Origin: Lingula anatina
Lineage: Eukaryota; Animalia; Brachiopoda
Length of the DNA stretch: 64,000 nt
Reading direction: 5' to 3'
NCBI GenBank assembly: GCA_051362555.1
Contig: CM120640.1
Coordinates: 33,065,967 to 33,129,966, forward strand
A program made the translations under genes and the position numbers. Under the pieces are notes generated by a model that made no database searches, was not told the DNA's origin, and saw nothing but the letters and a program-made list of their open reading frames with translations. Below, in pieces: positions 1 to 56,547 of this stretch. Position 1 is the first letter of the stretch. The number at the start of each line of letters is the position of its first letter.

Positions 1-3000
1 AGACTACTCTTCAGATCAACAATTTAAGGTTAGAAAATTTTATTTTTTTGGAGTTGATAGAAAAATTGCAAAAATTCTAATCTAGTTTTATTTCTTTTTA
101 CTGGACATAGATGATGATTAGCAACTCTACCTAGACATTGACTTCACACGTCTATATAAGTTAAGGTTAATAAACTTTTTTTTTGTTTGGGGGGGGGGGG
201 GGAGACATAGGTAAATTGCAAAAAGATCTAATCTCTTTCTTATTTCTTTTTACAGGACATGGAAGATGACAAGTGCCTACCATGGAACATAGACTACTCT
301 TCGGATCAACAATTTATGGTTAGTAAATTTTATTTTTTTGGAGGGGATAGAAAAATTGAAAAAATCTATTCTAGTTTAATTTCTTATAACTGGACAAAGA
401 ATATAATGAGTAACTCTACCCAGACATTGACTTCACACGTCTATATAAGTTAAGATTAATAAACTTGATTAATTCTTTGGGGGGGGGGGGGGGCGGCACA
501 GGGGACTGGGGGATGTAGGCAAATTGCAAAAAGATCTAATCTCATTCTTATTTCTTTTTACAGGACATGGAAGATGACTAGTGCTTACCATCAAACATAG
601 ACTACTCTACGGATCAACAATTTATGGTTAGTAAATTTTATTTTTTTGGAGGGGATAGAAAAATTTTTACAAAATCTAATGTAGTTTTATTTCTTTTTAT
701 GGGATATAGAATATGATAAGTAACATTACCTATACATTGACTTCACATGTCGATATAAGTTGAGGTTAATAAACTCTTTTTTTTGTTGGGGGTTGGGGGG
801 GTGAAGACGGGGGGCGGTGGACGGGGGGGGGGGAGTAGGTAAATAGCAAAAAGATCTAATCTCTTTCTTATTTCTTTTTACAGGACATAGAAGATGACAA
901 GTACCTACCATGGGACATAGACTATTCTTCGGATCAACAATTTAAGGTTAGTAAATTTTATATTTTGGAGAGGATAAAAAATTTTTTACAAAATCTGATT
1001 TAGTTTTATTTCATTTTACAGGACATAGAAGATGATGAGGAACTCTAGAAGATGACAAGTGTCTACCACCGAACATAGACTACTCTTCAGATCAACAATT
1101 TAAGGTTAGAAAATTTTATTTTTTTGGAGTTGATAGAAAAATTGTAAAAATTCTTATCTAGTTTTATTTCTTTTTACTGTACATAGATGATGATTAGCAA
1201 CTCTACCTAGACATTGACTTCACACGTCTATATAAGTTAAGGTTAATAAACTTTTTTTTTGTTTGGGGGGGGGGGGGGGGAGACATAGGTAAATTGCAAA
1301 AAGATCTAATCTCTTTCTTATTTCTTTTTACAGGACATGGAAGATGACAAGTGCCTACCATGGAACATAGACTACTCTTCGGATCAACAATTAATGGTTA
1401 GTAAATTTTATTTTTTTGGAGGGGATAAAAAAATTGAAAAAAATCTATTCTAGTTTAATTTCTTATAACTGGACAAAGAATATAATGAGTAACTCTACCC
1501 AGACATTGACTTCACACGTCTATATAAGTTAAGATTAATAAACTTTATTAATTCTTTTTTTTTTTTTTTTGGGGGGGGGCGCAGGGGAATGGGGGATGTA
1601 GGCAAATTGTTAAAAGATCTAATCTCATTCTTATTTCTTTTTACAGGACATGGAAGATGACTAGTGCTTACCATCAAACATAGACTACTCTACGGATCAA
1701 CAATTTATGGTTAGTAAATTTCATTTTTTTGGAGTGGATAGAAAAATTGAAAAAAATCTATTCTAGTTTTATTTCTTATTACTGGACAAAAGAAAAATTA
1801 TTAACTCTACCCAGACATTGACTGCACATGTCTATATAAGTTAAGGTTAATAAACTTTATTAATTCTTTTTTTTTTGGGGGGGGGGGGGGGGGCACAGGG
1901 GACTGGGGGATGTAGGTAAATTGCAAAAAGATCTAATCTCATTCTTATTTCTTTTCACAGGACATGGAAGATGACAAGTGCCTACAATGGAACATAGACT
2001 ACTCTTTGGATCAACAATTTATGGTTAGTAAATTTTATTTTTTTGGAGGGGATAAAAAAATTGAAAAAAATCTATTCTAGTTTTATTTCTTATTACTGGA
2101 CAAAAATATAATGAGTGACTCTACCCAGACATTGACTTCACACGTCTATATAAGTTAAGATTAATAAACTTTATTAATTCTTTGGGGGGGGGGGGGGGGG
2201 GGGGGGGGCGGCGGCACAGGGGACTGGGGGATGTAGGCAAATTGCAAAAAGATCTAATCTCATTCTTATTTCTTTTTACAGGACATGGAAGATGACTAGT
2301 GCTTACCATCAAACATAGACTACTCTACGGATCAACAATTTATGGTTAGTAAATTTTATTTTTTTGGAGGGGATAGAAAAATTTTTACAAAATCTAATGT
2401 AGTTTTATTTCTTTTTATGGGACATAGAATATGATAAGTAACATTACCTATACATTGACTTCACAGGTCGATATAAGTTAAGATTAATAAACTTTCATTT
2501 TATTTTTTTTTTGGGGGGGGGGGGGTGTGGACGGGGGGCGGTGGACGGGGGGGGGGGGGGGATGTAGGTAAATAGAAAAAGATCTAATCTCTTTCTAATT
2601 TCTTTTTACAGGACATAGAAGATGACAAGTACCTACCATTGGACATAGACTATTCTTCGGATCAACAATTTAAGGTTAGTAAATTTTATATTTTGGAGAG
2701 GATAAAAATTTTTTTACAAAATGTGATCTAGTTTTATTTCATTTTACAGGACATAGAAGATGATGAGGAACTCTAGAAGATGACAAGTGTCTACCACCGA
2801 ACATAGACTACTCTTCGGATCAACAATTTAAGGTTAGAAAATTTTATTTTTTTGGAGTTGATAGAAAAATTGCAAAAATTCTAATCTAGTTTTATTTCTT
2901 TTTACTGGACATAGATGATGATTAGCAACTCTACCTAGACATTAACTTCAGACGTCTATATAAGTTAAATTTAATAAACTTTTTTTTTGTTTGGGGGGGG

Positions 3001-6000
3001 GGGGAGACATAGGTAAATTGCAAAAAGATCTAATCTCTTTCTTATTTCTTTTTACAGGACATGGAAGATGACAAGTGCCTACCATGGAACATAGACTACT
3101 CTTTGGATCAACAATTTATGGTTAGTAAATTTTATTTTTTTGGAGGGGATAAAAAAATTGAAAAAAATCTATTTTAGTTTTATTTCTTATTACTGGACAA
3201 AAATATAATGAGTAACTCTACCCAGACATTGACTTCACACGTCTATATAAGTTAAGATTAATAAACTTTATTAATTCTTTGGGGGGGGGGGGGGGGGGGG
3301 CGGCACAGGGGACTGGGGGATGTAGGCAAATTGCAAAAAGATCTAATCTCATTCTTATTTCTTTTTACAGGACATGGAAGATGACTAGTGCTTACCATCA
3401 AACATAGACTACTCTACGGATCAACAATTTATGGTTAGTAAATTTTATTTTTTTGGAGGGGATAGAAAAATTTTTACAAAATCTAATGTAGTTTTATTTC
3501 TTTTTATGGGATATAGAATATGATAAGTAACATTACCTATACATTGACTTCACATGTCGATATAAGTTGAGGTTAATAAACTCTTTTTTTTGTTGGGGGT
3601 TGGGGGGGTGAAGACGGGGGGGTGGTGGACGGGGGGGGGGGGGGGAGTAGGTAAATAGCAAAAAGATCTAATCTCTTTCTTATTTCTTTTTACAGGACAT
3701 AGAAGATGACAAGTACCTACCATGGGACATAGACTATTCTTCGGATCAACAATTTAAGGTTAGTAAATTTTATATTTTGGAGAGGATAAAAAATTTTTTA
3801 CAAAATCTGATTTAGTTTTATTTCATTTTACAGGACATAGAAGATGATGAGGAACTCTAGAAGATGACAAGTGTCTACCACCGAACATAGACTACTCTTC
3901 AGATCAACAATTTAAGGTTAGAAAATTTTATTTTTTTGGAGTTGATAGAAAAATTGCAAAAATTCTAATCTAGTTTTATTTCTTTTTACTGGACATAGAT
4001 GATGATTAGCAACTCTACCTAGACATTGACTTCACACGTCTATATAAGTTAAGGTTAATAAACTTTTTTTTTGTTTGGGGGGGGGGGGGGGAGACATAGG
4101 TAAATTGCAAAAAGATCTAATCTCTTTCTTATTTCTTTTTACAGGACATGGAAGATGACAAGTGCCTACCATGGAACATAGACTACTCTTTGGATCAACA
4201 ATTTATGGTTAGTAAATTTTATTTTTTTGGAGGGGATAAAAAAATTGAAAAAAATCTATTCTAGTTTAATTTCTTATAACTGGACAAAGAATATAATGAG
4301 TAACTCTACCCAGACATTGACTTCACAGGTCGATATAAGTTAAAATTAATAAACTTTCATTTTATTTTGGGGGGGGGGGGGGGGTGAAGACGGGGGGCGG
4401 TGGATGGGGGGGGATGTAGGTAAATAGCAAAAAGACCTAATCTCATTCTTATTTCTTTTTACAGGACATGGAAGATGACTAGTGCTTACAATCAAACATA
4501 GACTACTCTACGGATCAACAATTTATGGTTAGTAAATTTTATTTTTTTGGAGGGGATAGAAAAATTTTTACAAAATCTAATGTAGTTTTATTTCTTTTTA
4601 TGGGATATAGAATATGATAAGTAACATTACCTATACATTGACTTCACATGTCGATATAAGTTGAGGTTAATAAACTCTTTTTTTGTTGGGGGGGGGGGGG
4701 GGTGAAGACGGGGGGCGGTGGACGGGGGGGGGGGGGGTGAGGTAGGTAAATAGCAAAAAGATCTAATCTCTTTCTTATTTCTTTTTACAGGATATAGAAG
4801 ATGACAAGTACCTACCATCAGACATAGACTATTCTTCGGATCAACAATTTAAGGTTAGTAAATTTTATATTTTGGAGAGGATAAAAAATTTTTTACAAAA
4901 TCTGATTTAGTTTTATTTCATTTTACAGGACATAGAAGATGATGAGGAACTCTAGAAGATGACAAGTGTCTACCACTGAACATAGACTACTCTTCGGATC
5001 AACAATTTAAGGTTAGAAAATTTTATTTTTTTGGAGTTGATAGAAAAATTGCAAAAATTCTAATCTAGTTTTATTTTTTTTTACTGGACATAGATGATGA
5101 TTAGCAACTCTACCTAGACATTGACTTCACACGTCTATATAAGTTAAGGTTAATAAACTTTTTTTTTGTTTGGGGGGGGGGGGGGGGAGACATAGGTAAA
5201 TTGCAAAAAGGTCTAATCTCTTTCTTATTTCTTTTTACAGGACATGGAAGATGACAAGTGCCTACCATGGAACATAGACTACTCTTCGGATCAACAATTT
5301 ATGGTTAGTAAATTTTATTTTTTTGGAGGGGATAAAAAAATTGAAAAAAATCTATTCTAGTTTAATTTCTTATAACTGGACAAAGAATATAATGAGTAAC
5401 TCTACCCAGACTTTGACTTCACACGTCTATATAAGTTAAGATTAATAAACTTTATTAATTCTTTTTTTTTGTGGGGGGGGGGGGGCGCAGGGGAATGGGG
5501 GATGTAGTTAAATTTAAAAAGATCTAATATCATTCTTATTTCTTTTTACAGGACATGGAAGATGACAATTGCCTACCATCGAACATAGACCACTCTTCGG
5601 ATCATCATTTTAAGGTTAGTAAATTTTATTTTTTTAGAGGGGATAGAAAAATTTTTACAAAATCTAATGTAGTTTTATTTCTTTTTATGGGACATAGAAT
5701 ATGATAAGTAACATTACCTATACATTGACTTCACAGGTCGATATAAGTTAAGATTAATAAACTTTCATTTTATTTTGGGGGGGGGGCGGTGGACGGGGGG
5801 GGGGGGGGGGATGTAGTTAAATAGAAAAAGATCTAATCTCTTTCTTATTTCTTTTTACAGGACATAGAAGATGACAAGAACCTACCATTGGACATAGACT
5901 ATTCTTCGGATCAACAATTTAAGGTTAGTAAATTTTATATTTTGGAGAGGATAAAAATTTTTTTACAAAATCTGATCTAGTTTTATTTCATTTTACAGGA

Positions 6001-9000
6001 CATAGAAGATGATGAGGAACTCTAGAAGATGACAAGTGTCTTCCACCGAACATAGACTACTCTTCGGATCAACAATTTAAGGTTAGAAAATTTTATTTTT
6101 TTGGAGTTGATAGAAAAATTTCAAAAATTCTAATCTAGTTTTATTTCTTTTTACTGGACATAGATGATGATTAGCAACTCTACCTAGACATTAACTTCAC
6201 ACGTCTATATAAGTTAAATTTAATAAACTTTTTTTTTGTTTGGGGGGGGGGAGACATAGGTAAATTGCAAAAAGATCTAATCTCTTTCTTTTTTCTTTTT
6301 ACAGGACATGGAAGATGAGAAGTGCGTACCATAGAACATAGAATATTCTTCATATCAACAATTTAAGGTTAGTAAATTTTATTTTTTTGGAGGGGATAAA
6401 AAAATTGAAAAAAATCTATTCTAGTTTAATTTCTTATAACTGGACAAAGAATATAATGAGTGACTCTACCCAGACATTGACTTCACACGTCTATATAAGT
6501 TAAGATTAATAAACTTTATTAATTCTTTTTTTTTTGGGGGGGGGCGCAGGGGAATGGGGGATGTAGGCAAATTGTTAAAAGATCTAATCTCATTCTTATT
6601 TCTTTTTACAGGACATGGAAGATGACTAGTGCTTACCATCAAACATAGACTACTCTTCGGATCATCAATTTATGGTTAGTAAATTTTAGTTTTTTGGAGT
6701 GGATAGAAAAATTGAAAAAAATCTATTCTAGTTTTATTTCTTATTACTGGACAAAGAATATAATGAGTAACTCTACCCAGACATTGACTGCACACGTCTA
6801 TATAAGTTAAGGTTGATAAACTTTATTATTTCTTTTTGGGTGGGGGTGCGCAGGAGACTGGGGGATGTAGTTAAATTTAAAAAGATCTAATATCATTCTT
6901 ATTTCTTTTTACAGGACATGGAAGATGACAATTGCCTACCATCGAACATAGACCACTCTTCGGATCATCAATTTAAGGTTAGTAAATTTTATTTTTTTAG
7001 AGGGGATAGAAAAATTTTTACAAAATCTAATGTAGTTTTATTTCTTTTTATGGGACATAGAATATGATAAGTAACATTACCTATACATTGACTTCACAGG
7101 TCGATATAAGTTAAGATTAATAAACTTTCATTTTATTTTTTGGGGGGGGGGGGGGGGGGCGGTGGACGGGGGGGGGGGGGATGTAGGTAAATAGAAAAAG
7201 ATCTAATCTCTTTCTTATTTCTTTTTACAGGACATAGAAGATGACAAGTACCTACCATTGGACATAGACTATTCTTCGGATCAACAATTTAAGGTTAGTA
7301 AATTTTATATTTTGGAGAGGATAAAAATTTTTTTACAAAATCTGATCTAGTTTTATTTCATTTTACAGGACATAGAAGATGATGAGGAACTCTAGAAGAT
7401 GACAAGTGTCTACCACCGAACATAGACTACTCTTCGGATCAACAATTTAAGGTTAGAAAATTTTATTTTTTTGGAGTTGATAGAAAAATTGCAAAAATTC
7501 TAATCTAGTTTTATTTCTTTTTACTGGACATAGATGATGATTAGCAACTCTACCTAGACATTAACTTCACACGTCTATATAAGTTAAATTTAATAAACTT
7601 TTTTTTGTTTGGGGGGGGGGGGGAGACATAGGTAAATTGCAAAAAGATCTAATCTCTTTCTTATTTCTTTTTACAGGACATGGAAGATGACAAGTGCCTA
7701 CCATGGAACATAGACTACTCTTTGGATCAACAATTTATGGTTAGTAAATTTTATTTTTTTGGAGGGGATAAAAAAATTGAAAAAAATCTATTCTAGTTTT
7801 ATTTCTTATTACTGGACAAAGAATAAAATGAGTAACTCTACCCAGACATTGACTTCACACGTCTATATAAGTTAAGATTAATAAACTTTCATTTTATTTT
7901 GGGGGGGGGGGGGGGTGAAGACGGGGGGCGGTGGACGGGGGGGGATGTAGGTAAATAGCAAAAAGATCTAATCTCTTTCTTATTTCTTTTTACAGGACAT
8001 GGAAGATGACAAGTGCCTACCATGGAACATAGACTACTCTTCGGATCAACAATTTATGGTTAGTAAATTTTATTTTTTTGGAGGGGATAAAAAAATTGAA
8101 AAAAATCTATTCTAGTTTAATTTCTTATAACTGGACAAAGAATATAATGAGTAACTCTACCCAGACATTGACTTCACAGGTCGATATAAGTTAAGATTAA
8201 TAAACTTTATTAATTCTTTTTTTTTTGGGGCGGGGGGGGGGGGGCGCGCAGGGGAATGGGGGATGTAGGCAAATTGTTAAAAGATCTAATCTCATTCTTA
8301 TTTCTTTTTACAGGACATGGAAGATGACTAGTGCTTACCATCAAACATAGACTACTCTATGGATCAACAATTTATGGTTAGTAAATTTCATTTTTTTGGA
8401 GTGGATAGCAAAATTGAAAAAATCTATTCTAGTTTTATTTCTTATTACTGGACAAAAGAAAAATTATTAACTCTACCCAGACATTGACTGCACATGTCTA
8501 TATAAGTTAAGGTTAATAAACTTTATTAATTCTTTTGGGGGGGAGGGGCACAGGGGACTGGGGGATGTAGGTAAATTGCAAAAAGATCTAATCTCATTCT
8601 TATTTCTTTTTACAGGACATGGAAGATGACAAGTGCCTACCATGGAACATAGACTACTCTTCGGATCAACAATTTATGGTTAGTAAATTTTAGTTTTTTG
8701 GAGTGGATAGAAAAATTGAAAAAAATATATTCTAGTTTTATTTCTTATTACTGGACAAAGAATATAATGAGTAACTCTACCCAGACATTGACTGCACACG
8801 TCTATATAAGTTAAGGTTAATAAACTTTATTGTTTCTTTTTGGGTGGGGGTGCGCAGGAGACTGGGGGATGTAGTTAAATTAAAAAAGATCTAATATCAT
8901 TCTTATTTCTTTTTACAGGACATGGAAGATGACAATTGCCTACCATCGAACATAGACCACTCTTCGGATCATCAATTTAAGGTTAGTAAATTTTATTTTT

Positions 9001-12000
9001 TTGGAGGGGATAGAAAATTTTTTACAAAATCTAATGTAGTTTTATTTCTTTTTATGGGACATAGAATATGATAAGTAACATTACCTATACATTGACTTCA
9101 CATGTCGATATAAGCTGAGGTTAATAAACTCTTTTTTTTGTTGGGGGGGGGGGCGGTGGACGGGGGGGGGGATGTAGGTAAATAGCAAAAAGATCTAATC
9201 TCTTTCTTATTTCTTTTTACAGGACATAGAAGATGACAAGTACCTACCATTCGGCATAGACTATTCTTCGGATCAACAATTTAAGGTTAGTTAATTTTAT
9301 ATTTTGGAGAGGATAAAAAATTTTTTATAAAATCTGATCTAGTTTTATTTAATTTTACAGGACATAGAAGATGATGAGGAACTCTAGAAGATTACAAGTG
9401 TCTACCACCGAACATAGACTACTCTTCGGATCAACAATTTAAGGTTAGAAAATTTTATTTTTTTGGAGTTGATAGAAAAATTGTAAAAATTCTAATCTAG
9501 TTTTATTTCTTTTTACTGGACATAGATGATGATTAGCAACTCTACCTAGACATTGACTTCACACGTCTATATAAGTTAAGGTTAATAAACTTTTTTTTTG
9601 TTTGGGGGGGGGGGGGGAGACATAGGTAAATTGCAAAAAGATCTAATCTCTTTCTTATTTCTTTTTACAGGACATGGAAGATGACAAGTGCCTACCATCA
9701 AACATAGACTACTCTTCGGATCAACAATTTATGGTTAGTAAATTTTATTTTTTTGAAGGGGATAAAAAAATTGAAAAAAAAATCTATTCTAGTTTTATTT
9801 CTTATTACTGGACAAAGTATATAATGAGTAACTCTACCCAGGCATTGACTTCACACGTCTATATAAGTTAAGATTAATAAACTATTAATTCTTTTGGGGG
9901 GGGGCGCAGGGGACTGGGGGATGTAGGCAAATTGCAAAAAGATCTAATCTCATTCTTATTTCTTTTTACAGGACATGGAAGATGACTAGTGCCTACCATC
10001 AAACATAGACTACTCTACGGATCAACAATTTATGGTTAGTAAATTTTAGTTTTTTGGAGTGGATAGAAAAATTGAAAAAAATCTATTCTAGTTTTATTTC
10101 TTATTACTGGACAAAGAATATAATGAGTAACTCTACCCAGACATTGACTGCACACGTCTATATAAGTTAAGGTTAATAAACTTTATTATTTCTTTTTGGG
10201 TGGGGGTGCGCAGGAGACTGGGGGATGTAGTTAAATTAAAAAAGATCTAATATCATTCTTATTTCTTTTTACAGGACATGGAAGATGACAATTGCCTACC
10301 ATCGAACATAGACCACTCTTCGGATCATCAATTTAAGGTTAGTAAATTTTATTTTTTTGGAGGGGATAGAAAATTTTTTACAAAATCTAATGTAGTTTTA
10401 TTTCTTTTTATGGGACATAGAATATGATAAGTAACATTACTTAGACATTGACTTCACATGTCGATATAAGCTGAGGTTAATAAACCTTCTTTTTTTTGTT
10501 GGGGGGGGGGGGTGAGGACGGGGGGCGGTGGACGGGGGGGGGGGATGTAGGTAAATAGCAAAAAGATCTAATCTCTTTCTTATTTCCTTTTACAGGACAT
10601 AGAAGATGACAAGTACCTACCATTGGACATAGACTATTCTTCGGATCAACAATTTAAGGTTAGTAAATTTTATTTTTTGGAGGGGATAAAAATTTTTTTA
10701 CAAAATCTGATCTAGTTTTATTTCTTTTTACAGGACATAGAAGATGATGAGCAACTCTAGAAGATGACAAGTGTCTACCACCGAACATAGACTACTCTTC
10801 GGATCAACAATTTAAGGTTAGAACATTTTATTTTTTTTGGAGTTGATAGAAAAATTGCAAAAATTCTAATCTAGTTTTATTTCTTTTTACTGGACATAGA
10901 TGATGATTAGCAACTCTACCTAGACATTGACTTCACACGTCTATATAAGTTAAGGTTAATAAACTTTTTTTTTGTTTGGGGGGGGGGGGGAGACATAGGT
11001 AAATTGCAAAAAGATCTAATCTCTTTCTTATTTCTTTTTACAGGACATGGAAGATGACAAGTGCCTACCATCAAACATAGACTACTCTTCGGATCAACAA
11101 TTTATGGTTAGTAAATTTTATTTTTTTGAAGGGGATAAAAAAATTGAAAAAAAAAATCTATTCTAGTTTTATTTCTTATTACTGGACAAAGTATATAATG
11201 AGTAACTCTACCCAGGCATTGACTTCACACGTCTATATAAGTTAAGATTAATAAACTTTATTAATTCTTTTGGGGGGGGGCGCAGGGGACTGGGGGATGT
11301 AGGCAAATTGCAAAAAGATCTAATCTCATTCTTATTTCTTTTTACAGGACATGGAAGATGACTAGTGCCTACCATCAAACATAGACTACTCTTTGGATCA
11401 ACAATTTATGGTTAGTAAATTTCATTTTTTTGAAGGGGATAAAAAAATTGAAAAAAAAATCTATTCTAGTTTTATTTCTTATTACTGGACAAAGAATATA
11501 ATGAGTAACTCTACCCAGACATTGACTTCACACGTCTATATAAGTTAAGATTAATAAACTTTATTAATTCTTTTGGGGGGGGGGGCGCAGGGGACTCGGG
11601 GATGTAGGCAAATTGCAAAAAGATCTAATCTCATTCTTATTTCTTTTTACAGGACATAGAAGATGACAAGTGCCTACCATCAAACATAGACTACTCTACG
11701 GATCAACAATTTATGGTTAGTAAATTTTAGTTTTTTGGAGTGGATAGAAAAATTGAAAAAAATCTATTCTAGTTTTATTTCTTATTACTGGACAAAGAAT
11801 ATAATGAGTAACTCTACCCAGACATTGACTGCACACGTCTATATAAGTTAAGGTTAATAAACTTTATTATTTCTTTTTGGGTGGGGGTGCGCAGGAGACT
11901 GGGGGATGTAGTTAAATTAAAAAAGATCTAATATCATTCTTATTTCTTTTTACAGGACATGGAAGATGACAATTGCCTACCATCGAACATAGACCACTCT

Positions 12001-15000: not shown

Positions 15001-18000
15001 TCTTATTTCTTTTTACAGGACATGGAAGATGACTAGTGCTTACCATCAAACATAGACTACTCTACGGATCAACAATTTATGGTTAGTAAATTTTATTTTT
15101 TTGGAGGGGATAGAAAATTTTTTACAAAATCTAATGTAGTTTTATTTCTTTTTATGGGATATAGAATATGATAAGTAACATTACCTATACATTTACTTCA
15201 CATGTCGATATAAGTTGAGGTTAATAAACTCTTTCTTTTGTTTGGGGGGGGGGGGGGTGAAGACGGGGGGCGGTGGACGGGGGGGGGGGGGAAGTAAGTA
15301 AATAGCAAAAAGATCTAATCTCTTTCTTATTTCTTTTTACAGGACATAGAAGATGACAAGTACCTACCATCGGACATAGACTATTCTTTGGATCAACAAT
15401 TTAAGGTTAGTAAATTTTATATTTTGGAGAGGATAAAAATTTTTTTACAAAATCTGATTTAGTTTTATTTCATTTTACAGGACATAGAAGATGATGAGGA
15501 ACTCTAGAAGATGACACAAGTGTGTACCACCGAACATAGACTACTCTTCGGATCAACAATTTAAGGTTAGAAAATTTTATTTTTTTGGAGTTGATAGAAA
15601 AATTGCAAAAATTCTAATCTAGTTTTATTTCTTTTTACTGGACATAGATGATGATTAGCAACTCTACCTAGACATTGACTTCACACGTCTATATAAGTTA
15701 AGGTTAATAAACTTTTTTTTTGTTTGGGGGGGGGGGGAGACATAGGTATTTGCAAAAAGATCTAATCTCTTTCTTATTTCTTTTTACAGGACATGGAAGA
15801 TGACTAGTGCCTACCATCAAACATAGACTACTCTACGGATCAACAATTTATGGTTAGTAAATTTCATTTTTTGGAGTGGATAGAAAAATTGAAAAAAATC
15901 TATTCTAGTTTTATTTCTTATTACTGGACAAAGAATATAATTAGTAACTCTACCCAGACATTGACTGCACACTTCTATATAAGTTACGGTTAATAAACTT
16001 TATTATTTCTTTTGGGGGGGTGGGGGGTGGGGGGCGCTGGGGACTGGGGGATGTAGGTAAATTGCAAAAAGAGCTAATCTCATTCTTATTTCTTTTTACA
16101 GGACATAGAAGATGACAAGTTCCTACCATCAAACATAGACTACTCTTTGGATCAACAATTTATGGTAAGTAAATTTCATTTTTTTGAAGGGGATAAAAAA
16201 ATTGAAAAAAAAATCTATTCTAGTTTTATTTCTTATTACTGGACAAAGAATATAATGAGTAAGTCTACCCAGACATTGACTTCACACTTCTATATAAGTT
16301 AAGATTAATAAACTTTATTAATTCTTTTTGGGGGGGGGGAGGGGGGCGCAGGGGACTGGGGGATGTAGGCAAATTGCAAAAAGATCTAATCTCATTCTTA
16401 TTTCTTTTTACAGGACATAGAAGATGACTAGTGCCTACCATCAAACATAGACTACTCTACAGATCAACAATTTATGGTTAGTAAATTTCATTTTTTGGAG
16501 TGTTTAGAAAAATTGAAAAAAATCTATTCTAGTTTTATTTCTTATTACTGGACAAAGAATATAATTAGTAACTCTACCCAGACATTGACTGCACACGTCT
16601 ATATAAGTTACGGTTAATAAACTTTATTATTTCTTTTGGGGGGGTGGGGGGTGGGGGGCGCTGGGGACTGGGGGATGTAGGTAAATTGCAAAAAGAGCTA
16701 ATCTCATTCTTATTTCTTTTTACAGGACATAGAAGATGACAAGTTCCTACCATCAAACATAGACTACTCTTTGGATCAACAATTTATGGTTAGTAAATTT
16801 CATTTTTTTGAAGGGGATAAAAAAATTGAAAAAAAAATCTATTCTAGTTTTATTTCTTATTACTGGACAAAGAATATAATGAGTAAGTCTACCCAGACAT
16901 TGACTTCACACGTCTATATAAGTTAAGATTAATAAACTTTATTAATTCTTTTGGGGGGGGTGCAGGGGACTCGGGGATGTAAGCAAATTGCAAAAAGATC
17001 TAATCTCATTCTTATTTCTTTTTACAGGACATAGAAGATGACTAGTGCCTACCATCAAACATAGACTACTCTACGGATCAACAATTTATGGTTAGTAAAT
17101 TTTAGTTTTTTGGAGTGGATAGAAAAATTGAAAAAAATCTATTCTAGTTTTATTTCTTATTACTGGACAAAGAATATAATGAGTAACTCTACCCAGACAT
17201 TGACTGCACACGTCTAGACAGGTTAATAAACTTTCTTTTTTTTGTTGAGGGGGGGGGGGTGAGGACGGGGGGGCGGTGGACAGGGGGGGGGATGTAGGTA
17301 AATAGCAAAAAGATCTAATCTCTTTCTTATTTCTTTTTACAGGACATAGAAGATGACAAGTACCTACCATTGGGCATAGACTATTCTTCGGATCAACAAT
17401 TTAAGGTTAGCAAATTTTATATTTTGGAGAGGATAAAAAATTTTTTACAAAATCTGATCTAGTTTTATTTCATTTTACAGGACATAGAAGATGATGAGGA
17501 ACTCTAGAAGATGACAAGTGTCTACCACCGAACATAGACTACTCTTCGGATCAACAATTTAAGGTTAGAAAATTTTATTTTTTTGGAGTTGATAGAAAAA
17601 TTGCAAAAATTCTAATCTAGTTTTATTTCTTTTTACTGGACATAGATGATTAGCAACTCTACCTAGACATTGACTTCACACATCTATATAAGTTAAGGTT
17701 AATAAACTTTTTTTTTGTTTGGGGGGGGGGGAGACATAGGTAAATTGCAAAAAGATCTAATCTCTTTCTTATTTCTTTTTACAGGACATGGAAGATGACA
17801 AGTGCCTACCATGGAACATAGACTACTCTTCGGATCAACAATTTATGGTTAGTAAATTTTATTTTTTTGGAGGGGATAAAAAAATTGAAAAAAATCTATT
17901 CTAGTTTAATTTCTTATAACTGGACAAAGAATATAATGAGTAACTCTACCCAGACATTGACTTCACACATCTATATAAGTTAAGATTAATAAACTTTATT

Positions 18001-33000: not shown

Positions 33001-34761
33001 AGAATATAATGAGTAACTCTACCCAGACTGACTTCACACGTCTATATAAGTTAAGATTAATAAACTTTATTAATTCTTTTTTTTTTGGGGGGGGGGGGGG
33101 GCGCAGGGGAATGGGGGATGTAGGCAAATTGTAAAAAGATCTTATCTCATTCTTATTTCTTTTTACAGGACATGGAAGATGACTAGTGCTTACCATCAAA
33201 CATAGACTACTCTACGGATCAACAATTTATGGTTAGTAAATTTCATTTTTTTGGAGTGGATAGAAAAATTGAAAAAAATCTATTCTAGTTTTATTTCTTA
33301 TTACTGGACAAAAGAAAAATTATTAACTCTACCCAGACATTGACTGCACATGTCTATATAAGTTAAGGTTAATAAACTTTATTAATTCTTTTGGGGGGGA
33401 GGGGCACAGGGGACTGGGGGATGTAGGTAAATTGCAAAAAGATCTAATCTCATTCTTATTTCTTTTTACAGGACATGGAAGATGACAAGTGCCTACCATG
33501 GAACATAGACTACTCTTCGGATCAACAATTTATGGTTAGTAAATTTTAGTTTTTTGGAGTGGATAGAAAAATTGAAAAAAATCTATTCTAGTTTTATTTC
33601 TTATTACTGGACAAAGAATATAATGAGTAAGTCTACCCAGAGATTGACTGCACACGTCTATATAAGTTAAGGTGAATAAACTTTATTGTTTCTTTTTGGG
33701 TGGGGGTGCGCAGGAGACTGGGGGATGTAGTTAAATTTAAAAAGATCTAATATTCTTATTTCTTTTTACAGGACATGAAAGATGACAATTGCCTACCATC
33801 GAACATAGACCACTCTTCGGATCATCAATTTAAGGTTAGTAAATTTTATTTTTTTGGAGGGGATAGAAAAATTTTTACAAAATCTAATGTAGTTTTATTT
33901 CTTTTTATGGGACATAGAATATGATAAGTAACATTACCTAGACATTGACTTCACATGTCGATATAAGCTGAGGTTAATAAACCTTCTTTTTTTTGTTGGG
34001 GGGGGGGGGGGTGAGGACGGGGGGCGGTGGACGGGGGGGGGGGGATGTAGGTAAATAGCAAAAAGATCTAATCTCTTTCTTATTTCTTTTTACAGGACAT
34101 AGAAGATGACAAGTACCTACCATTGGACATAGACTATTCTTCGGATCAACAATTTAAGGTTAGTAAATTTTATTTTTTGGAGGCGATAAAAATTTTTTTA
34201 CAAAATCTGATCTAGTTTTATTTCTTTTTACAGGACATAGAAGATGATGAGCAACTCTAGAAGATGACAAGTGTCTACCACCGAACATAGACTACTCTTC
34301 GGATCAACAATTTAAGGTTAGAACATTTTATTTTTTTTGGAGTTGATAGAAAAATTGCAAAAATTCTAATCTAGTTTTATTTCTTTTTACTGGACATAGA
34401 TGATGATTAGCAACTCTACCTAGACATTGACTTCACACGTCTATATAAGTTAAGGTTAATAAACTTTTTTTTGTTTGGGTGGGGGGAGACATAGGTAAAT
34501 TGCAAAAAGATCTAATCTCTTTCTTATTTCTTTTTACAGGACATGGAAGATGACAAGTGCCTACCATGGAACATAGACTACTCTTTGGATCAACAATTTA
34601 TGGTTAGTAAATTTTATTTTTTTGGAGGGGATAAAAAAATTGAAAAAAATCTATTCTAGTTTTATTTCTTATTACTGGACAAAAATATAATGAGTAACTC
34701 TACCCAGACATTGACTTCACACGTCTATATAAGTTAAGATTAATAAACTTTATTAATTCTT

Positions 34762-34795
<34 letters not shown>

Positions 34796-37700
34796 CGGCA
34801 CAGGGGACTGGGGGATGTAGGCAAATTGCAAAAAGATCTAATCTCATTCTTATTTCTTTTTACAGGACATGGAAGATGACTAGTGCTTACCATCAAACAT
34901 AGACTACTCTACGGATCAACAATTTATGGTTAGTAAATTATATTTTTTTGGAGGGGATAGAAAAATTTTTACAAAATCTAATGTAGTTTTATTTCTTTTT
35001 ATGGGATATAGAATATGATAAGTAACATTACCTAAACATTTACTTCACATGTCGATATAAGTTGAGGTTAATAAACTCTTTCTTTTGTTTGGGGGGGGGG
35101 GGGGGGGGGTGAAGACGGGGGGCGGTGGACGGGGGGGGGGGAGTAAGTAAATAGCAAAAAGATCTAATCTCTTTCTTATTTCTTTTTACAGGACATAGAA
35201 GATGACAAGTACCTACCATCGGACATAGACTATTCTTCGGATCAACAATTTAAGGTTAGTAAATTTTATATTTTGGAGAGGATAAAAAATTTTTTACAAA
35301 ATCTGATTTAGTTTTATTTCATTTTACAGGACATAGAAGATGATGAGGAACTCTAGAAGATGACACAAGTGTGTACCACCGAACATAGACTACTCTTCGG
35401 ATCAACAATTTAAGGTTAGAAAATTTTATTTTTTTGGAGTTGATAGAAAAATTGCAAAAATTCTAATCTAGTTTTATTTCTTTTTACTGGACATAGATGA
35501 TGATTAGCAACTCTACCTAGACATTGACTTCACACGTCTATATAAGTTAAGGTTAATAAACTTTTTTTTTGTTTGGGGGGGGGGGGAGACATAGGTATTT
35601 GCAAAAAGATCTAATCTCTTTCTTATTTCTTTTTACAGGACATGGAAGATGACTAGTGCCTACCATCAAACATAGACTACTCTACGGATCAACAATTTAT
35701 GGTTAGTAAATTTCATTTTTTGGAGTGGATAGAAAAATTGAAAAAAATCTATTCTAGTTTTATTTCTTATTACTGGACAAAGAATATAATTAGTAACTCT
35801 ACCCAGACATTGACTGCACACTTCTATATAAGTTAAGATTAATAAACTTTATTAATTCTTTTGGGGGGGGGGAGGGGGGCGCAGGGGACTGGGGGATGTA
35901 GGCAAATTGCAAAAAGATCTAATCTCATTCTTATTTCTTTTTACAGGACATAGAAGATGACTAGTGCCTACCATCAAACATAGACTACTCTACAGATCAA
36001 CAATTTATGGTTAGTAAATTTCATTTTTTTGAAGGGGATAAAAAAATTGAAAAAAAAATCTATTCTAGTTTTATTTCTTATTACTGGACAAAGAATATAA
36101 TGAGTAAGTCTACCCAGACATTGACTTCACACGTCTATATAAGTTAAGATTAATAAACTTTATTAATTCTTTTGGGGGGGGGGGCGCAGGGGACTCGGGG
36201 ATGTAGGCAAATTGCAAAAAGATCTAATCTCATTCTTATTTCTTTTTACAGGACATAGAAGATGACTAGTGCCTACCATCAAACATAGACTACTCTACGG
36301 ATCAACAATTTATGGTTAGTAAATTTCATTTTTTGGAGTGGATAGAAAAATTGAAAAAAATCTATTCTAGTTTTATTTCTTATTACTGGACAAAGAATAT
36401 AATTAGTAACTCTACCCAGACATTGACTGCACACGTCTATATAAGTTACGGTTAATAAACTTTATTATTTCTTTTGGGGGGGTGGGGGGTGGGGGGCGCT
36501 GGGGACTGGGGGATGTAGGTAAATTGCAAAAAGAGCTAATCTCATTCTTATTTCTTTTTACAGGACATAGAAGATGACAAGTTCCTACCATCAAACATAG
36601 ACTACTCTTTGGATCAACAATTTATGGTTAGTAAATTTCATTTTTTTGAAGGGGATAAAAAAATTGAAAAAAAAATCTATTCTAGTTTTATTTCTTATTA
36701 CTGGACAAAGAATATAATGAGTAACTCTACCCAGACATTGACTTCACACGTCTATATAAGTTAAGATTAATAAACTTTATTAATTCTTTTGGGGGGGGGG
36801 GGGGGGCGCAGGGGACTCGGGGATGTAGGCAAATTGCAAAAAGATCTAATCTCATTCTTATTTCTTTTTACAGGACATAGAAGATGACAAGTGCCTACCA
36901 TCAAACATAGACTACTCTACGGATCAACAATTTATGGTTAGTAAATTTTAGTTTTTTGGAGTGGATAGAAAAATTGAAAAAAATCTATTCTAGTTTTATT
37001 TCTTATTACTGGACAAAGAATATAATGAGTAACTCTACCCAGACATTGACTGCACACGTCTATATAAGTTAAGGTTAATAAACTTTATTATTCCTTTATG
37101 GGTGGGGGTGCGCAGGAGACTGGGGGATGTAGTTAAATTAAAAAAGATCTAATATCATTCTTATTTCTTTTTACAGGACATGGAAGATGACAATTGCCTA
37201 CCATCGAACATAGACCACTCTTCGGATCATCAATTTAAGGTTAGTAAATTTTATTTTTTTGGAGGGGATAGAAAATTTTTTACAAAATCTAATGTAGTTT
37301 TATTTCTTTTTATGGGACATAGAATATGATAAGTAACATTACCTAGACATTGACTTCACATGTCGATATAAGCTGAGGTTAATAAACCTTCTTTTTTTTG
37401 TTGGGGGGGGGGGGGGTGAGGACGGGGGGCGGTGGACGGGGGGGGGGGATGTAGGTAAATAGCAAAAAGATCTAATCTCTTTCTTATTTCTTTTTACAGG
37501 ACATAGAAGATGACAAGTACCTACCATTGGACATAGACTATTCTTCGGATCAACAATTTAAGGTTAGTAAATTTTATTTTTTGGAGGGGATAAAAATTTT
37601 TTTACAAAATCTGATCTAGTTTTATTTCTTTTTACAGGACATAGAAGATGATGAGGAACTCTAGAAGATGACACAAGTGTGTACCACCGAACATAGACTA

Positions 37701-40700
37701 CTCTTCGGATCAACAATTTAAGGTTAGAAAATTTTATTTTTTTGGAGTTGATAGAAAAATTGCAAAAATTCTAATCTAGTTTTATTTCTTTTTACTGGAC
37801 ATAGATGATGATTAGCAACTCTACCTAGACATTGACTTCACACGTCTATATAAGTTAAGGTTAATAAATTTTTTTTTGTTTGGGTGGGGGGAGACATAGG
37901 TAAATTGCAAAAAGATCTAATCTCTTTCTTATTTCTTTTTACAGGACATGGAAGATGACAAGTGCCTACCATGGAACATAGACTACTCTTTGGATCAACA
38001 ATTTATGGTTAGTAAATTTTATTTTTTTGGAGGGGATAAAAAAATTGAAAAAAATCTATTCTAGTTTTATTTCTTATTACTGGACAAAGAATATAATGAG
38101 TAAGTCTACCCAGACATTGACTTCACACGTCTATATAAGTTAAGATTAATAAACTTTATTAATTCTTTTTTTTGGGGGGGGGGGGGGGGGGGGGCGCAGG
38201 GGACTGGGGGATGTAGGCAAATTGCAAAAAGATCTTATCTCATTCTTATTTCTTTTTACAGGACATAGAAGATGACTAGTGCCTACCATCAAACATAGAC
38301 TACTCTACGGATCAACAATTTATGGTTAGTAAATTTCATTTTTTGGAGTGGATAGAAAAATTGAAAAAAATCTATTCTAGTTTTATTTCTTATTACTGGA
38401 CAAAGAATATAATTAGTAACTCTACCCAGACATTGACTGCACACGTCTATATAAGTTACGGTTAATAAACTTTATTATTTCTTTTGGGGGGGTGGGGGGT
38501 GGGGGGCGCTGGGGACTGGGGGATGTAGGTAAATTGCAAAAAGAGCTAATCTCATTCTTATTTCTTTTTACAGGACATAGAAGATGACAAGTTCCTACCA
38601 TCAAACATAGACTACTCTTTGGATCAACAATTTATGGTTAGTAAATTTCATTTTTTTGAAGGGGATAAAAAAATTGAAAAAAAAATCTATTCTAGTTTTA
38701 TTTCTTATTACTGGACAAAGAATATAATGAGTAAGTCCTAGACATTGACTTCACACGTCTATATAAGTTAAGGTTAATAAACTTTTTTTTTGTTTGGGTG
38801 GGGGGAGACATAGGTAAATTGCAAAAAGATCTAATCTCTTTCTTATTTCTTTTTACAGGACATGGAAGATGACAAGTGCCTACCATGGAACATAGACTAC
38901 TCTTTGGATCAACAATTTATGGTTAGTAAATTTTATTTTTTTGGAGGGGATAAAAAAATTGAAAAAAATCTATTCTAGTTTTATTTCTTATTACTGGACA
39001 AAGAATATAATGAGAAACTCTACCCAGACATTGACTGCACACGTCTAGACAGGTTAATAAACTTTCTTTTTTTTGTTGGGGGGGGGGGGGGGGGGGGGGT
39101 GAGGACGGGGGGGGCGGTGGACAGGGGGGGGGGATGTAGGTAAATAGCAAAAAGATCTAATCTCTTTCTTATTTATTTTTACAGGACATAGAAGATGACA
39201 AGTACCTACCATTGGGGATAGACTATTTTTCGGATCAACAATTTAAGGTTAGTAAATTTTATATTTTGGAGAGGATAAAAAATTTTTTACAAAATCTGAT
39301 CTAGTTTTATTTCATTTTACAGGACATAGAAGATGATGAGGAACTCTAGAAGATGACAAGTGTCTACCACCGAACATAGACTACTCTTCGGATCAACAAT
39401 TTAAGGTTAGAAAATTTTATTTTTTTGGAGTTGATAGAAAAATTGCAAAAATTCTAATCTAGTTTTATTTCTTTTTACTGGACATAGATGATGATTAGCA
39501 ACTCTACCTAGACATTGACTTCACATGTCTGTATAAGTTAAGGTTAATAAACTTTTTTTTTGTTTGGGGGGGGGGAGACATAGGTAAATTGCAAAAAGAT
39601 CTAATCTCTTTCTTATTTCTTTTTACAGGACATGGAAGATGACAAGTGCCTACCATGGAACATAGACTACTCTTCGGATCAACAATTTATGGTTAGTAAA
39701 TTTTATTTTTTTGGAGGGGATAAAAAAATTGAAAAAAATCTATTCTAGTTTAATTTCTTATAACTGGACAAAGAATATAATGAGTAACTCTACCCAGACA
39801 TTGACTTCACACGTCTATATAAGTTAAGATTAATAAACTTTATTAATTCTTTTTTTTTTTGGGGGGGGGGGGGCGCAGGGGAATGGGGGATGTAGGCAAA
39901 TTGCAAAAAGATCTTATCTCATTCTTATTTCTTTTTACAGGACATGGAAGATGACTAGTGCTTACCATCAAACATAGACTACTCTACGGATCAACAATTT
40001 ATGGTTAGTAAATTTCATTTTTTTGGAGTGGATAGAAAAATTGAAAAAAATCTATTCTAGTTTTATTTCTTATTACTGGACAAAAGAAAAATTATTAACT
40101 CTACCCAGACATTGACTGCACATGTCTATATAAGTTAAGGTTAATAAACTTTATTAATTCTTTTTTTTGGGGGGGAGAGGGGGGGCACAGGGGACTGGGG
40201 GATGTAGGTAAATTGCAAAAATTCTAATCTAGTTTTATTTCTTTTTACTGGACATAGATGATGATTAGCAACTCTACCTAGACATTGACTTCACACGTCT
40301 GTATAAGTTAAGGTTAATAAACTTTTTTTTTGTTTGGGGGGGGGGAGACATAGGTAAATTGCAAAAAGATCTAATCTCTTTCTTATTTCTTTTTACAGGA
40401 CATGGAAGATGACAAGTGCCTACCATGGAACATAGACTACTCTTCGGATCAACAATTTATGGTTAGTAAATTTTATTTTTTTGGAGGGGATAAAAAAATT
40501 GAAAAAAATCTATTCTAGTTTAATTTCTTATAACTGGACAAAGAATATAATGAGTAACTCTACCCAGACATTGACTTCACACATCTATATAAGTTAAGAT
40601 TAATAAACTTTATTAATTCTTTTTTTTTTGGGGGGGGGCGCAGGGGAATGGGGGATGTAGGCAAATTGCAAAAAGATCTTATCTCATTCTTATTTCTTTT

Positions 40701-43030
40701 TACAGGACATGGAAGATGACAAGTGCCTACCATGGAACATAGACTACTCTTCGGATCAACAATTTATGGTTAGTAAATTTTAGTTTTTTGGAGTGGATAG
40801 AAAAATTGAAAAAAATCTATTCTAGTTTTATTTCTTATTACTGGACAAAGAATATAATGAGTAACTCTACCCAGACATTGACTGCACACGTCTATATAAG
40901 TTAAGGTTAATAAACTTTATTATTTCTTTTTGGGTGGGGGTGCGCAGGAGACTGGGGGATGTAGTTAAATTTAAAAAGATCTAATATCATTCTTATTTCT
41001 TTTTACAGGACATGGAAGATGACAATTGCCTACCATCGAACATAGACCACTCTTCGGATCATCAATTTAAGGTTAGTAAATTTTATTTTTTTGGAGGGGA
41101 TAGAAAATTTTTTTACAAAATCTAATGTAGTTTTATTTCTTTTTATGGGACATAGAATATGATAAGTAACATTACCTATACATTGACTTCACATGTCGAT
41201 ATAAGCTGAGGTTAATAAACTCTTTTTTTTGTTGGGGGGGGGGGGTGAGGACGGGGGGCGGTGGACGGGGGGGGGGATGTAGGTTAATAGCAAAAAGATC
41301 TAATCTCTTTCTTATTTCTTTTTACAGGACATAGAAGATGACAAGTACCTACCATTGGGCATAGACTATTCTTCGGATCAACAATTTAAGGTTAGTAAAT
41401 TTTATATTTTGGAGAGGATAAAAAATTTTTTACAAAATCTGATCTAGTTTTATTTCATTTTACAGGACATAGAAGATGATGAGGAACTCTAGAAGATGAC
41501 AAGTGTCTACCACCGAACATAGACTACTCTTCGGATCAACAATTTAAGGTTAGAAAATTTTATTTTTTTGGAGTTGATAGAAAAATTGCAAAAATTCTAA
41601 TCTAGTTTTATTTCTTTTTACTGGACATAGATGATGATTAGGAACTCTACCTAGACATTAACTTCACACGTCTATATAAGTTAAATTTAATAAACTTTTT
41701 TTTTGTTTGGGGGGGGGGGGGAGACATAGGTAAATTGCAAAAAGATCTAATCTCATTCTTATTTCTTTTTACAGGACATGGAAGATGACAAGTGCCTACC
41801 ATCAAACATAGACTACTCTTCGGAGCAACAATTTATGGTTAGTAAATTTCATTTTTTGGAGTGGATAGAAAAATTGAAAAAAATCTATTCTAGTTTTATT
41901 TCTTATTACTGGACAAAGAATATAATTAGTAACTCTACCCAGACATTGACTGTACACGTCTATATAAGTTACGGTTAATAAACTTTATTATTTCTTTTGG
42001 GGGGGGTGGGGGGTGGGGGGTGGGGGGCGCTGGGGACCGGGGGATGTAGGTAAATTGTAAAAAGAGCTAATCTCATTCTTATTTCTTTTTACAGGACATA
42101 GAAGATGACAAGTTCCTACCATCAAACATAGACTACTCTTTGGATCAACAATTTCAGGTTAGTCAATTTTTTTTTTTTTTTGGAGGGGATAGAAAAATTT
42201 TTACAAAATCTAATATAGTTTTATTTCTTTTTATAGGACATAGAACATGATAAGAAACATTATCCAGACATTGACTTCACATGTCGATATAAGTTGAGGT
42301 TAATAAACTTTCCTTTTTTGGTGGGGGGGGGGGGAGGACGGGGGGCGGTGGGATGTAGGTAAATTGTAAAAAGATCTAATCTCTTTCTTATTTCTTTTTA
42401 CAGGACATAGAAGATGACAAGTACCTATCATTGGACATAGACTATTCTTCGGATCAACAATTTAAGGTTAGTAAATTTTATATTTTATACAGGATAACAA
42501 TTTTTTTACAAAATCTGATCTAGTTTTATTTCATTTTACAGGACATAGAAGATGATGAGCAACTCTAGAAGATGACAAGTGTCTACCATTGAACATAGAC
42601 TACTCTTCGGATCAATAATTTAAGGTAAGAAAATTTTATTTTTTTGGAGTTGATAGAAAAATTGAATAAAATTTTATCTAGTTTTATTTCTTTTTACAGG
42701 ACATAGAATATGATAAGCAACTCTACCTAGACATTGACTCCTGTCTCCAGGTGTCGATATAAGTTAAGGTTAATAAACTTTCTTATTTTTGTTGGGGGGG
42801 TGTGGACGGGGGGGGGGATGTTGATTAATTGCAAAAAGATCTAATCTCATTCTTATTTCTTTTTACAGGACATAGAAGGTGATGAGCATCTCCACTCAAA
42901 CATTGACTAATCTTCGGATCACCAATTAAAGGTTAGTAAATTTTATATTTTTAGGGGGGGGGATAGGTAAATTGAAAAAATCTAATCTCATTCTTAATTT
43001 CTTTTTACGGGACATAGATGATGAGTGCCA
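1..43030. repeat. Tandem satellite/macrosatellite array, ~290-320 bp monomers (dimer of two homologous ~140-170 bp subunits) in variable higher-order repeats; left end outside window
   Basis: The motif AGACTA(C/T)TCT recurs at 1, 291, 599, 919, 1077 and onward to ~42,900. The two halves share TAAGGTTA(G/A)TAAA(T/C)TTT and TTATTTCTTTTTAC(A/T)GGACAT(A/G)GA. A ~158 bp half-unit (GATGATGAG(G/C)AACTCTAGAAG) recurs about 26 times by hand count. Similarity decays from ~42,100 and is lost after ~43,030. Roughly 125 full monomers, estimated from lengths. Confidence 0.98.
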
Positions 43031-44390
43031 CATATTTGACTTCGACTGTACTCCTTGGACGAACAACGTCAGGTTATTTGCCACATGTATGAGACAACCC
43101 ACTTCTACGACATGTCTTGACTACACTTCTGGGATAGACGGACAGCCTCTCTTAGGAGCTTGAGCTGCTTGCTCACACTCCTGGGATAAAAGAAGGTTAG
43201 TAAACTGTAAGTGGGGAAGAGGGGAGCAAGAAAAAAATATTTTTCATTTCTACCTGGAGTAAACATATTATTACGTGAACAATAATTAAGAGTGTCATGC
43301 CCCCGGAGTGCGATGACAAATGCAATTTTAAAAAATCCCTACCCCTATTCACGATGCAACCGATTTTCACAAAATAGGATAACTGTCGTGCCAGGTGGGA
43401 GTCGTAAAATTCTAGCATATACTGCACATATATTACTAGTACTTTAATTATTTCATTTTGCAAGGTTCAATTCCATTTCCTTTCATAGTTTTTTTGGTAA
43501 ACGTACAATTTGATTTTTAGGCTATAGTAAAGCTACACAAGACGTCCAAAGGATAATGGCAACTCTCCAAGATGAAAAGCTCTAATGGCACACACATGTT
43601 TAGGAATACTTTGTAATAGAAGCAGACGGCCTTCCACCAGCTCATTACCACAACACTGGAAAAGAATGTTTCAAGGCAAGTACGTGAGAAAAAAAATGGT
43701 TACGTACATTATTGCTAGTTATTGAAAATAATATTTTAAAAATGATATTAACTGCGCCTGCTACCAGTAGGTCTGATAAACCTCTAGCATTTACAGGTTG
43801 ACTTACGAAGTGTCCATATTTGTTTATACATGTTATAACTTTTCTTATGCTCTCAATGCTCTATGACGAAGATTTAATTTGAACTTGTAGGCTACCAAAA
43901 GTGTTGACAACAACGTTATGAATAAGGCAGCAACTGAATTTAAGCCTTCAGCCTCCAATGATAATTCAGGAATTTCCATACACCTAATGGTATGTTTTCA
44001 TGTTTACCCACTAAATCTTTCCATAATGTCAAATATAATTAAACTGAATGTTGACTGTAATAATTGCAGCATATGTAATAAGATATAGAACTTCACAAAA
44101 ATCTTGACTTAGTTTTGATATCTATTTCAGAACTGAATATGTGGGATGGGCGTCATCTTTACTGTCTACGTTTTAGAGACATTTCTCATAACATGCAAAA
44201 CACCAAATATAAGAAATGCGTCGAATAATGTACCCAGATCATATCCATATAGAGAATAGCTGAAACATTTTGGACCATGGCTAATGAGTACGGAGAATCA
44301 CAATACATGTTATAACAAACCCAGTGCACCGAATGGATCTAACTCTTTGTTGGAAAATATTGTTAATACACGCGTACGTACAAGTACGTA
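43010..44390 (+). pseudogene. Degenerate exon-like segments continuing from the array (possible remnant of the host gene or a lncRNA)
   Basis: 43010-43195 starts like a repeat exon (DIDDEC...) and ends AAG|GTTAGTAAA. 43521-43675 (ttttag...AAG|gcaagt) reads YSKATQDVQRIMATLQDEKL*WHTHV*EYFVIEADGLPPAHYHNTGKECFK. 43891-43989 (ttgtag...ATG|gtatgt) is an open 99-nt segment. A further acceptor (tttcag) ends at 44130. No family recognised; stops present. Confidence 0.3.

Positions 44391-45485: not shown

Positions 45486-45497
<12 letters not shown>

Positions 45498-45535
<38 letters not shown>
45498..45535. repeat. (CA)n microsatellite preceded by (CG)n
   Basis: Directly visible; explains the spurious THTHTH ORF at 45440. 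Confidence 0.95.
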
Positions 45536-45538
<3 letters not shown>

Positions 45539-46024: not shown

Positions 46025-46027
46025 TAT

Positions 46028-46066
<39 letters not shown>

Positions 46067-46068
46067 TT
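46025..46068. repeat. (TTTA)n microsatellite
   Basis: About 11 direct TATT units. Confidence 0.95.
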
Positions 46069-46425: not shown

Positions 46426-46426
<1 letters not shown>

Positions 46427-46459
<33 letters not shown>

Positions 46460-46520
46460 CGTGTGTGTGTGTGTGTGTGTGTATGCGTGCGTGCGTGCGT
46501 GCGTGCGTGCGTGTGTGTGT
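46427..46520. repeat. Compound (TG)n/(TGCG)n microsatellite
   Basis: Directly visible. Confidence 0.95.

Positions 46521-56512: not shown

Positions 56513-56547
<35 letters not shown>

Follow-up and report, generated by a model that had tools for sequence, protein, structure and literature searches.

A satellite array of exon–intron units in the brachiopod Lingula anatina and its likely origin from a spliced non-coding gene

The stretch of Lingula anatina DNA analyzed here (64,000 nucleotides; GenBank assembly GCA_051362555.1, contig CM120640.1, positions 33,065,967 to 33,129,966 of the forward strand), hereafter termed the window, is occupied at 1..43030 (+) by a satellite array, which was segmented fully into 280 subunits of ~155 bp arranged in higher-order blocks of ~1-3 kb. 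Because the array extends past the left end of the window, which cuts through it, 43 kb is its minimum length. At its right edge the units grade into unique exons at 43.0-45.3 kb, and at a distance of 5 kb from the end of the array there follow genes that encode a protein that binds cyclic nucleotide monophosphates (cNMP; + strand, from 48054), Mis18-alpha (- strand) and IQCH (- strand). An earlier note, made from the letters of this DNA, had described the array as a series of complete splice cassettes, one per ~310-nt monomer, and had proposed that it was a combinatorially spliced exon library for an acidic repeat protein, a heavily spliced long non-coding RNA (lncRNA) or a satellite born by amplification of an exon–intron unit. 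In this study, the anatomy and divergence of the array were analyzed together with RNA reads, and the last of these proposals is favored.

The ~310-bp monomer is a dimer, the two ~155-bp halves of which are homologous. The subunits fall into types A (126 copies), B (127) and C (26), with a single edge unit besides, and the three types are homologous across their acceptor, exon and donor parts. In type A, the exon-like piece is preceded by CAG and followed by GT in all 126 copies and is 63 nt in length in 125 of them, and the branch-point-like CTAAT that had been reported was confirmed upstream of 118 of these 125. An example with a CAG acceptor, a GTTAGT donor and an open frame 0 (a frame that is open in 78/125) is found at 256..318 (+), and one with an in-frame TAG at 564..626 (+). 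Type B carries an exon-like piece of mostly 61-62 nt, the acceptor of which is dead in 125/127 copies (CTG in 104 and TGG in 21), while the GT of the donor is lost in 52/127; the 62-nt exon remnant at 393..454 (+), for instance, has both a dead acceptor (CTG) and a dead donor (AT). Type C measures 83 or 85 nt, retains AG...GT in 25/26 copies and shifts the frame, as in the 83-nt piece at 1022..1104 (+), which has 20 nt extra at its start and intact AG...GT. The estimate of roughly 150 mini-exons agrees with the 153/280 subunits in which AG...GT is retained.

The exons were further said to be mostly of 63 nt and phase 0, which applies to the 125 A copies; however, of the 153 units with both sites intact, no more than 78 are open and in frame, and at most four consecutive intact-site units are all open. 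Frame 0 is the sole open frame of the cassettes, frame 1 being closed in 126/126 A copies and frame 2 in 125/126. The in-frame TAG noted in many copies is a single change common to 42 of them, and some stop codon lies inside 47 of the 125 63-nt cassettes. The cassettes are near-identical and encode only 34 peptides. The translations of the five exons originally given as examples were right, with TTTTTACAG before them and GTTAGT after (GTAAGT at 16165), and the signal is one-stranded as stated, TTTACAGG occurring 148 times on the + strand and 0 times on the - strand. The introns of the array units span 75-400 nt, and length variation is held, as had been observed, in homopolymer runs, with 203 G-runs of 6-32 nt in 1-43030. 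The same interval contains 93 G-quadruplex-type motifs, all on the + strand; there are no C-runs, and the G-runs sit within the longer intron-like spacers.

The array is organized as a satellite with higher-order repeats, in that a short monomer is repeated head to tail over a long distance and blocks of several monomers are more alike than adjacent monomers are. Shared 40-mers most commonly recur at distances of ~1.65, 1.05, 2.3, 1.35, 0.6 and 3.05 kb; the blocks are irregular, without one fixed period, and types A, B and C recur in order. The longest exact repeat within the array is 986 bp, no inverted unit copies were found in the array and a megablast search for blocks longer than 1200 bp at 97% gave no matches. 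An identical twin is present for 106/125 cassettes, 36 cassettes being distinct, and the most diverged cassette stands at the right edge (the copy at 42869, 14/63 nt from its nearest copy). Comparison of exon and intron divergence, which had been suggested as a check, gave a diversity of 0.093 for the 63-nt cassette against 0.075 for the upstream 45 nt and 0.039 for the downstream 14 nt, the exon parts thus varying no less than the intron parts. Coding constraint on the cassettes is absent. Diversity at the three codon positions is 0.088, 0.094 and 0.098, 11/48 distinct changes are synonymous versus 16% expected (P = 0.24), and the ratio of non-synonymous to synonymous polymorphism (pN/pS) stands at 0.70 over all copies, but at 1.08 in the 78 open copies and at 1.04 when the 23 distinct open ones are counted.

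Splice-signal strength was scored using position weight matrices built from 17 donors and 19 acceptors of the neighboring genes only, with boundaries set by eye. Among 2000 dinucleotide shuffles of one monomer, 226 matched its acceptor and donor scores, 30 had an acceptor, a donor and a branch motif, and five also had an open exon of 3n length; the full cassette is thus more than chance would give. Since the array monomer counts once, this evidence is good, but not overwhelming, when taken alone. The common A donor scores 3.2, whereas real donors reach a leave-one-out median of 7.1, and 0/3 units of a second satellite in the window passed the cassette test.

The most diverged units (42700, 42869 and 43011) lie at the array edge, 42700..43072 (+); the acceptor at 43011 is CGG in the window and CAG in RNA reads of a diverged relative, which is described below. 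They are followed at 43073..43195 (+) by a degenerate unit-like exon end, the GTTAGT donor of which (43196) is spliced to 43521 in two reads from one run, giving a GT-AG intron (43196-43520). A unique exon at 43521..43675 (+), with stops in all three frames, is joined to 43891 in five reads from two runs across a GC-AG intron (43676-43890). Next to it are a unique 99-nt exon at 43891..43989 (+; AG...GTATGT), open in frame 0 only, with a read-supported acceptor and a predicted donor, and a predicted last exon or 3' region with putative boundaries at 44131..45310 (+), which contains AATAAA at 45074 and 45290-45303 and is sparsely covered in four runs. An open frame crosses the 43195-43521 joint for ~35 residues and then meets a stop; together with the sole open frame 0 of the cassettes, this hints at a coding ancestor.

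A search of sequencing runs listed no DNA or RNA run that contains the stretch. RNA reads were taken from four of nine runs (X1, X2, X4 and X7, which carry a species label only), sampled at 6%, 6%, 6% and 25% for a total of ~45 million reads, and were placed on 42040-45450 at 85% likeness, with 42157-42191 (one cassette donor) excluded. Of 909 placed reads, 41 were at least 95% alike and 47 lay wholly within 42040-45450; near-identical reads were sparse, with five at 99% or above in X2. One pile, at 42316-42353 and largest in X4 and X7, was rejected as a poly-G artefact on account of its loose ends. A second pile at 42374-42417, with a depth of 97 in X1, 118 in X2 and at most 10 in X4 and X7, consists of sense-strand reads of a relative of the array, which contain an array-like retained intron, the same exon start and then a differing exon body. 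The unit intron is kept in ~84-102 reads of the relative in X1 and X2, and in nearly none in X4 and X7. The RNA of the relative shows sample-specific expression and heavy intron retention.

In two groups of reads of the relative (4+3), one unit start is joined to another with 36 other letters between; the joined body, determined by eye, is a 52-nt exon that is closed in three frames, and its end resembles the ends of array exons. Splicing is the simplest reading of this unit-to-unit joint, which is known from RNA reads alone. The relative is a poly(A)-type RNA from the + strand, partly spliced, and it looks non-coding because, among the 11 differences listed for the downstream exons, one is synonymous, and because the frame is disrupted by a length difference of 5 nt. 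A spliced, stranded transcript with no conserved frame, which is the feature of an lncRNA or a transcribed pseudogene, is seen in this relative; for the locus itself there are the sparse near-identical reads given above. Six short motifs typical of its reads have 0 occurrences in the 64-kb window. With the block of the relative subtracted, the residual depth in the bin 42382-42495 (cassette at 42404) is 53 letters in X1 and 141 in X2, and the depth at 42154-42267 is 0.42 at most. The search for junction reads that had been recommended returned no cassette-to-cassette joint among the joints listed, which comprise all but two.

The relative may be a paralogue, or it may be the same locus in diverged animals without the array. 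L. anatina is highly heterozygous (1.6%, according to passages of PMC4595640) and has diverged between localities (passages of PMC8146825), both of which matter for reading the RNA data. The public L. anatina set contains two copies of the gene block, one on a contig of 64,933 bp and the other on one of 1.89 Mb. These are either separate haplotypes or the product of a recent duplication, and under both readings they could have given rise to the diverged RNA reads.

On this evidence, we consider it likely that the array is a tandem higher-order satellite, the monomer of which, an exon with a short intron, was amplified from a spliced non-coding Lingula gene. A donor of the unit type is in use in reads of the relative (43195 to 43521), which shows that the splice signals of the unit are real, and the proposal of a satellite born from an exon–intron unit is supported. 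The source gene, non-coding in this account, was probably once coding, and the array itself probably drifts at present and yields few spliced products or none. In such a history, a gene with a few exon–short-intron repeats would first have decayed to a non-coding spliced transcript. An A–B dimer, with the B acceptor already dead, would then have been amplified by unequal crossing-over into blocks of 1-3 kb, with the TAG mutation carried along into 42 copies. Slippage of the homopolymer runs would subsequently have created the length variation, and in the sampled tissues the array would be mostly skipped as an intron or left untranscribed.

Several points weigh against this account. In type A, no change is seen at the seven splice-core positions (CAG|G and G|GT), where 4.9 would be expected (Poisson P = 0.008; P = 0.068 for the AG and GT positions alone), whereas the matching B positions show seven changes versus 4.0 expected; unchanged A splice cores are not predicted by pure drift. 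A pN/pS near 1 is found in functional micro-exon genes (MEGs) too (passages of PMC4350168). The RNA test is weak, as it covers four of the nine runs with unspecified tissues and leaves silence of the array unproven; furthermore, it included no read control from a conserved gene, and therefore the sampled animals may not carry the array. Finally, the 5' end of the unit lies beyond the window.

If amplification from a spliced gene is accepted, the locus has a wider bearing. To our knowledge, the source sequence is untraceable for most satellites. In the present case it can be seen, in that the edge of the array merges into exons belonging to a spliced transcript and splicing persists in a relative that has unit variants of its own. 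How duplicated exons turn into a satellite can thus be tested directly across Lingula populations, and the 126 intact A copies beside 127 dead or decaying B copies provide a natural test of splice-site selection in non-coding sequence.

The strongest alternative, which we regard as possible but unlikely, is a living lncRNA gene of more than 150 tiny exons, with a promoter left of the window, the A and C cassettes spliced into the exons at 43.5-45.3 kb and selection acting on splicing itself. Because the A-type splice cores are unchanged, while the dead B units lose donors, this reading, which the earlier note had also raised, stays open; the splice signals and G-runs are strictly one-stranded, the relative is a partially spliced poly(A)-type RNA of the same strand, and selection in human lincRNAs has been described as mostly splice-related (passages of PMC4245815). 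However, cassette bodies are almost without depth, although the few cassettes in 42040-45450 would collect the reads of as many as 152 A and C copies, and the missing cassette-to-cassette joint counts against the proposal as well. Moreover, few independent events underlie the core test, the seven columns of which were chosen by the authors; its four-column version is not significant, and a core base is changed in 1/18 83-nt C copies. We are doubtful of the form of this reading in which the satellite, grown by satellite-type amplification, is itself the gene, its splice sites are under selection and its spliced products would appear as a 63-/83-nt ladder in a tissue or stage that was not sampled. 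A spliced array would represent an extreme among non-coding RNAs with many exons.

A combinatorial exon library encoding an acidic repeat protein, in which copies with stops or frame shifts are skipped or act as poison exons, is very improbable. The 63-nt exon is symmetric with frame 0 as its sole open frame, and a ratio of non-synonymous to synonymous substitution rates (dN/dS) near 1 is tolerated in MEGs (passages of PMC4350168), but 75/153 intact-site units would break the protein, stops lie in 47/125 cassettes, 25 units with intact sites shift the frame, and the longest clean run is of four units. The weaker ATG|GT donor is found in 42/47 stop-bearing versus 42/78 open copies, a point in favor of this reading; however, this association represents one lineage and not 42 events. 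The abundance of identical twins, the pN/pS of 1.04-1.08 and the lack of junction reads and of any related protein likewise speak against the comparison with Dscam and MEG arrays that had been drawn. Passages of Luo et al. (PMC4595640) describe Lingula shell matrix proteins without secreted acidic proteins. A coding exon library is not supported.

The protein searches behind this statement are weak for a 21-residue motif, yet L. anatina proteins are indexed and were recovered for the neighboring genes. Pfam returned no family for either of two cassette peptides or for the edge open reading frames at 42930 and 43891, a profile of 12 unit peptides matched 0/147 candidate proteins at E ≤ 10, and the ESM Atlas gave no usable match. 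Four profile matches among 1.84 billion proteins were rejected as unrelated tandem repeats sharing 3-5 residues per repeat. There were 0 Rfam matches across the 64 kb and 0 matches of a 29-nt array word in metagenome contigs, and five peptide words had 0 occurrences in one supplement of PMC13425148, a file of unconfirmed sequence content. The literature covered, with passages of the two Lingula genome papers, contains no description of this repeat or of a brachiopod exon–intron satellite. In these passages the word 'satellite' appears a single time, in the legend to a figure (10.1101/2024.05.28.596352), and those of PMC13121700 deal with neither centromeres nor lncRNA.

It is equally improbable that the array is an ordinary AT-rich satellite with coincidental splice-like motifs, one lucky monomer having been copied. 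The shuffles that equal the acceptor and donor strength (11%), the non-independence of the copies and the low score of the common A donor would allow such a coincidence, but both homologous halves share the anatomy, the full cassette arises in very few shuffles and the reads show a unit-type donor in use. Inflation of the array length by mis-assembly of a shorter repeat is the least credible explanation. Assembly is difficult across long G-runs and extended near-identical blocks, but the window is free of N, no exact repeat reaches 1 kb and the 36 distinct cassettes follow an irregular block order, unlike one collapsed or duplicated read.

With regard to the neighboring genes, 48054-52250 (+) contains a gene with at least two cNMP-binding domains. 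One of its exons matches an L. anatina protein at 98-100%; two named L. anatina cNMP proteins (169 and 237 aa) reach ~50630, and exon-like pieces continue to ~52250. The possibility that the array forms the 5' part of this gene was rejected, as the L. anatina protein begins at its own Met (48054); this start, and the finding that no fetched protein matches 42001-47900, place the array outside the gene. Mis18-alpha, a centromere-licensing gene, lies at 52604-54832 (-) between two satellites, a placement that is probably a coincidence. Head to head with it, a small gene that contains an acidic stretch has its exons at 55100-57620 (+); two tested pieces of it gave no Pfam match, and it resembles MTRES1. 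An IQCH exon has a 97% match to the L. anatina protein, the next species being at 72%. Past the last IQCH exon, a second, unrelated satellite (61777-64000; 146-bp unit, 441-bp period) exits the right end of the window, and therefore the four-gene block has a different array on each side.

Tandem duplication of exon–intron units is also the mode of growth in NBPF/Olduvai, titin PEVK exons and Chironomus BR3, where frames are open and proteins are made; the Lingula array shares the growth mode, but without an open-frame protein. The Drosophila Dscam1 clusters (passages of PMC8042237 and PMC6071210) likewise consist of tandem homologous exon-like units on one strand, which are alternative coding exons chosen by pairing of a docking site with selectors. 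In contrast, half of the Lingula intact-site units break the frame and the copies are near-identical, so that variant exons that are open and keep the frame are confined to 78/153 intact-site units. No clear docking partner was found in the 2.3 kb downstream of the array: the best duplexes with 43073-45400 reached -22.6 and -27.8 kcal/mol, within the range of 12 shuffles, and an A–B intron duplex reached -19.4 kcal/mol versus a shuffled minimum of -19.1 kcal/mol. Nor is the array embedded in a coding gene with constitutive exons on its 3' side, since the downstream exons have stops, their frame is not conserved with the relative and the next gene has its ATG at 48054.

The schistosome MEGs (passages of PMC4350168) share very small symmetric exons, the 63 nt of the 125 A exons falling within their range of 3-81 bp, and a dN/dS near 1. 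Their products are secreted proteins bearing signal peptides, their introns are long and they are seemingly restricted to flatworms (passages of PMC4350168 and PMC10526429), whereas the Lingula exons copy one unit, with short introns, many stops and no protein found, and protein variants by exon skipping are not indicated by the stops or, in a weak test, by the joints. The Drosophila lncRNA hsr-omega (passages of 10.1101/695486) is similar in its non-coding type, its long tandem repeat and its conserved splice junctions; its two exons are separated by a single intron and the repeat occupies the distal part, the repeat monomer not being described as an exon–intron unit. In Lingula, by contrast, the monomer is such a unit and the repeat lies upstream of unique exons. 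The closest likeness is to higher-order satellites, such as primate alpha satellite and the higher-order repeats of Tribolium (PMC5737470), with which the array shares head-to-tail monomers, diverged subunit types, block copying and the most diverged copies at the array edge. Unlike these, the Lingula array has as its monomer an exon with an intron, the splice sites of which are functional in a relative, and it passes gradually into exons that belong to a spliced transcript. What is new here is a satellite with a traceable exon–intron origin, together with RNA evidence from a relative.

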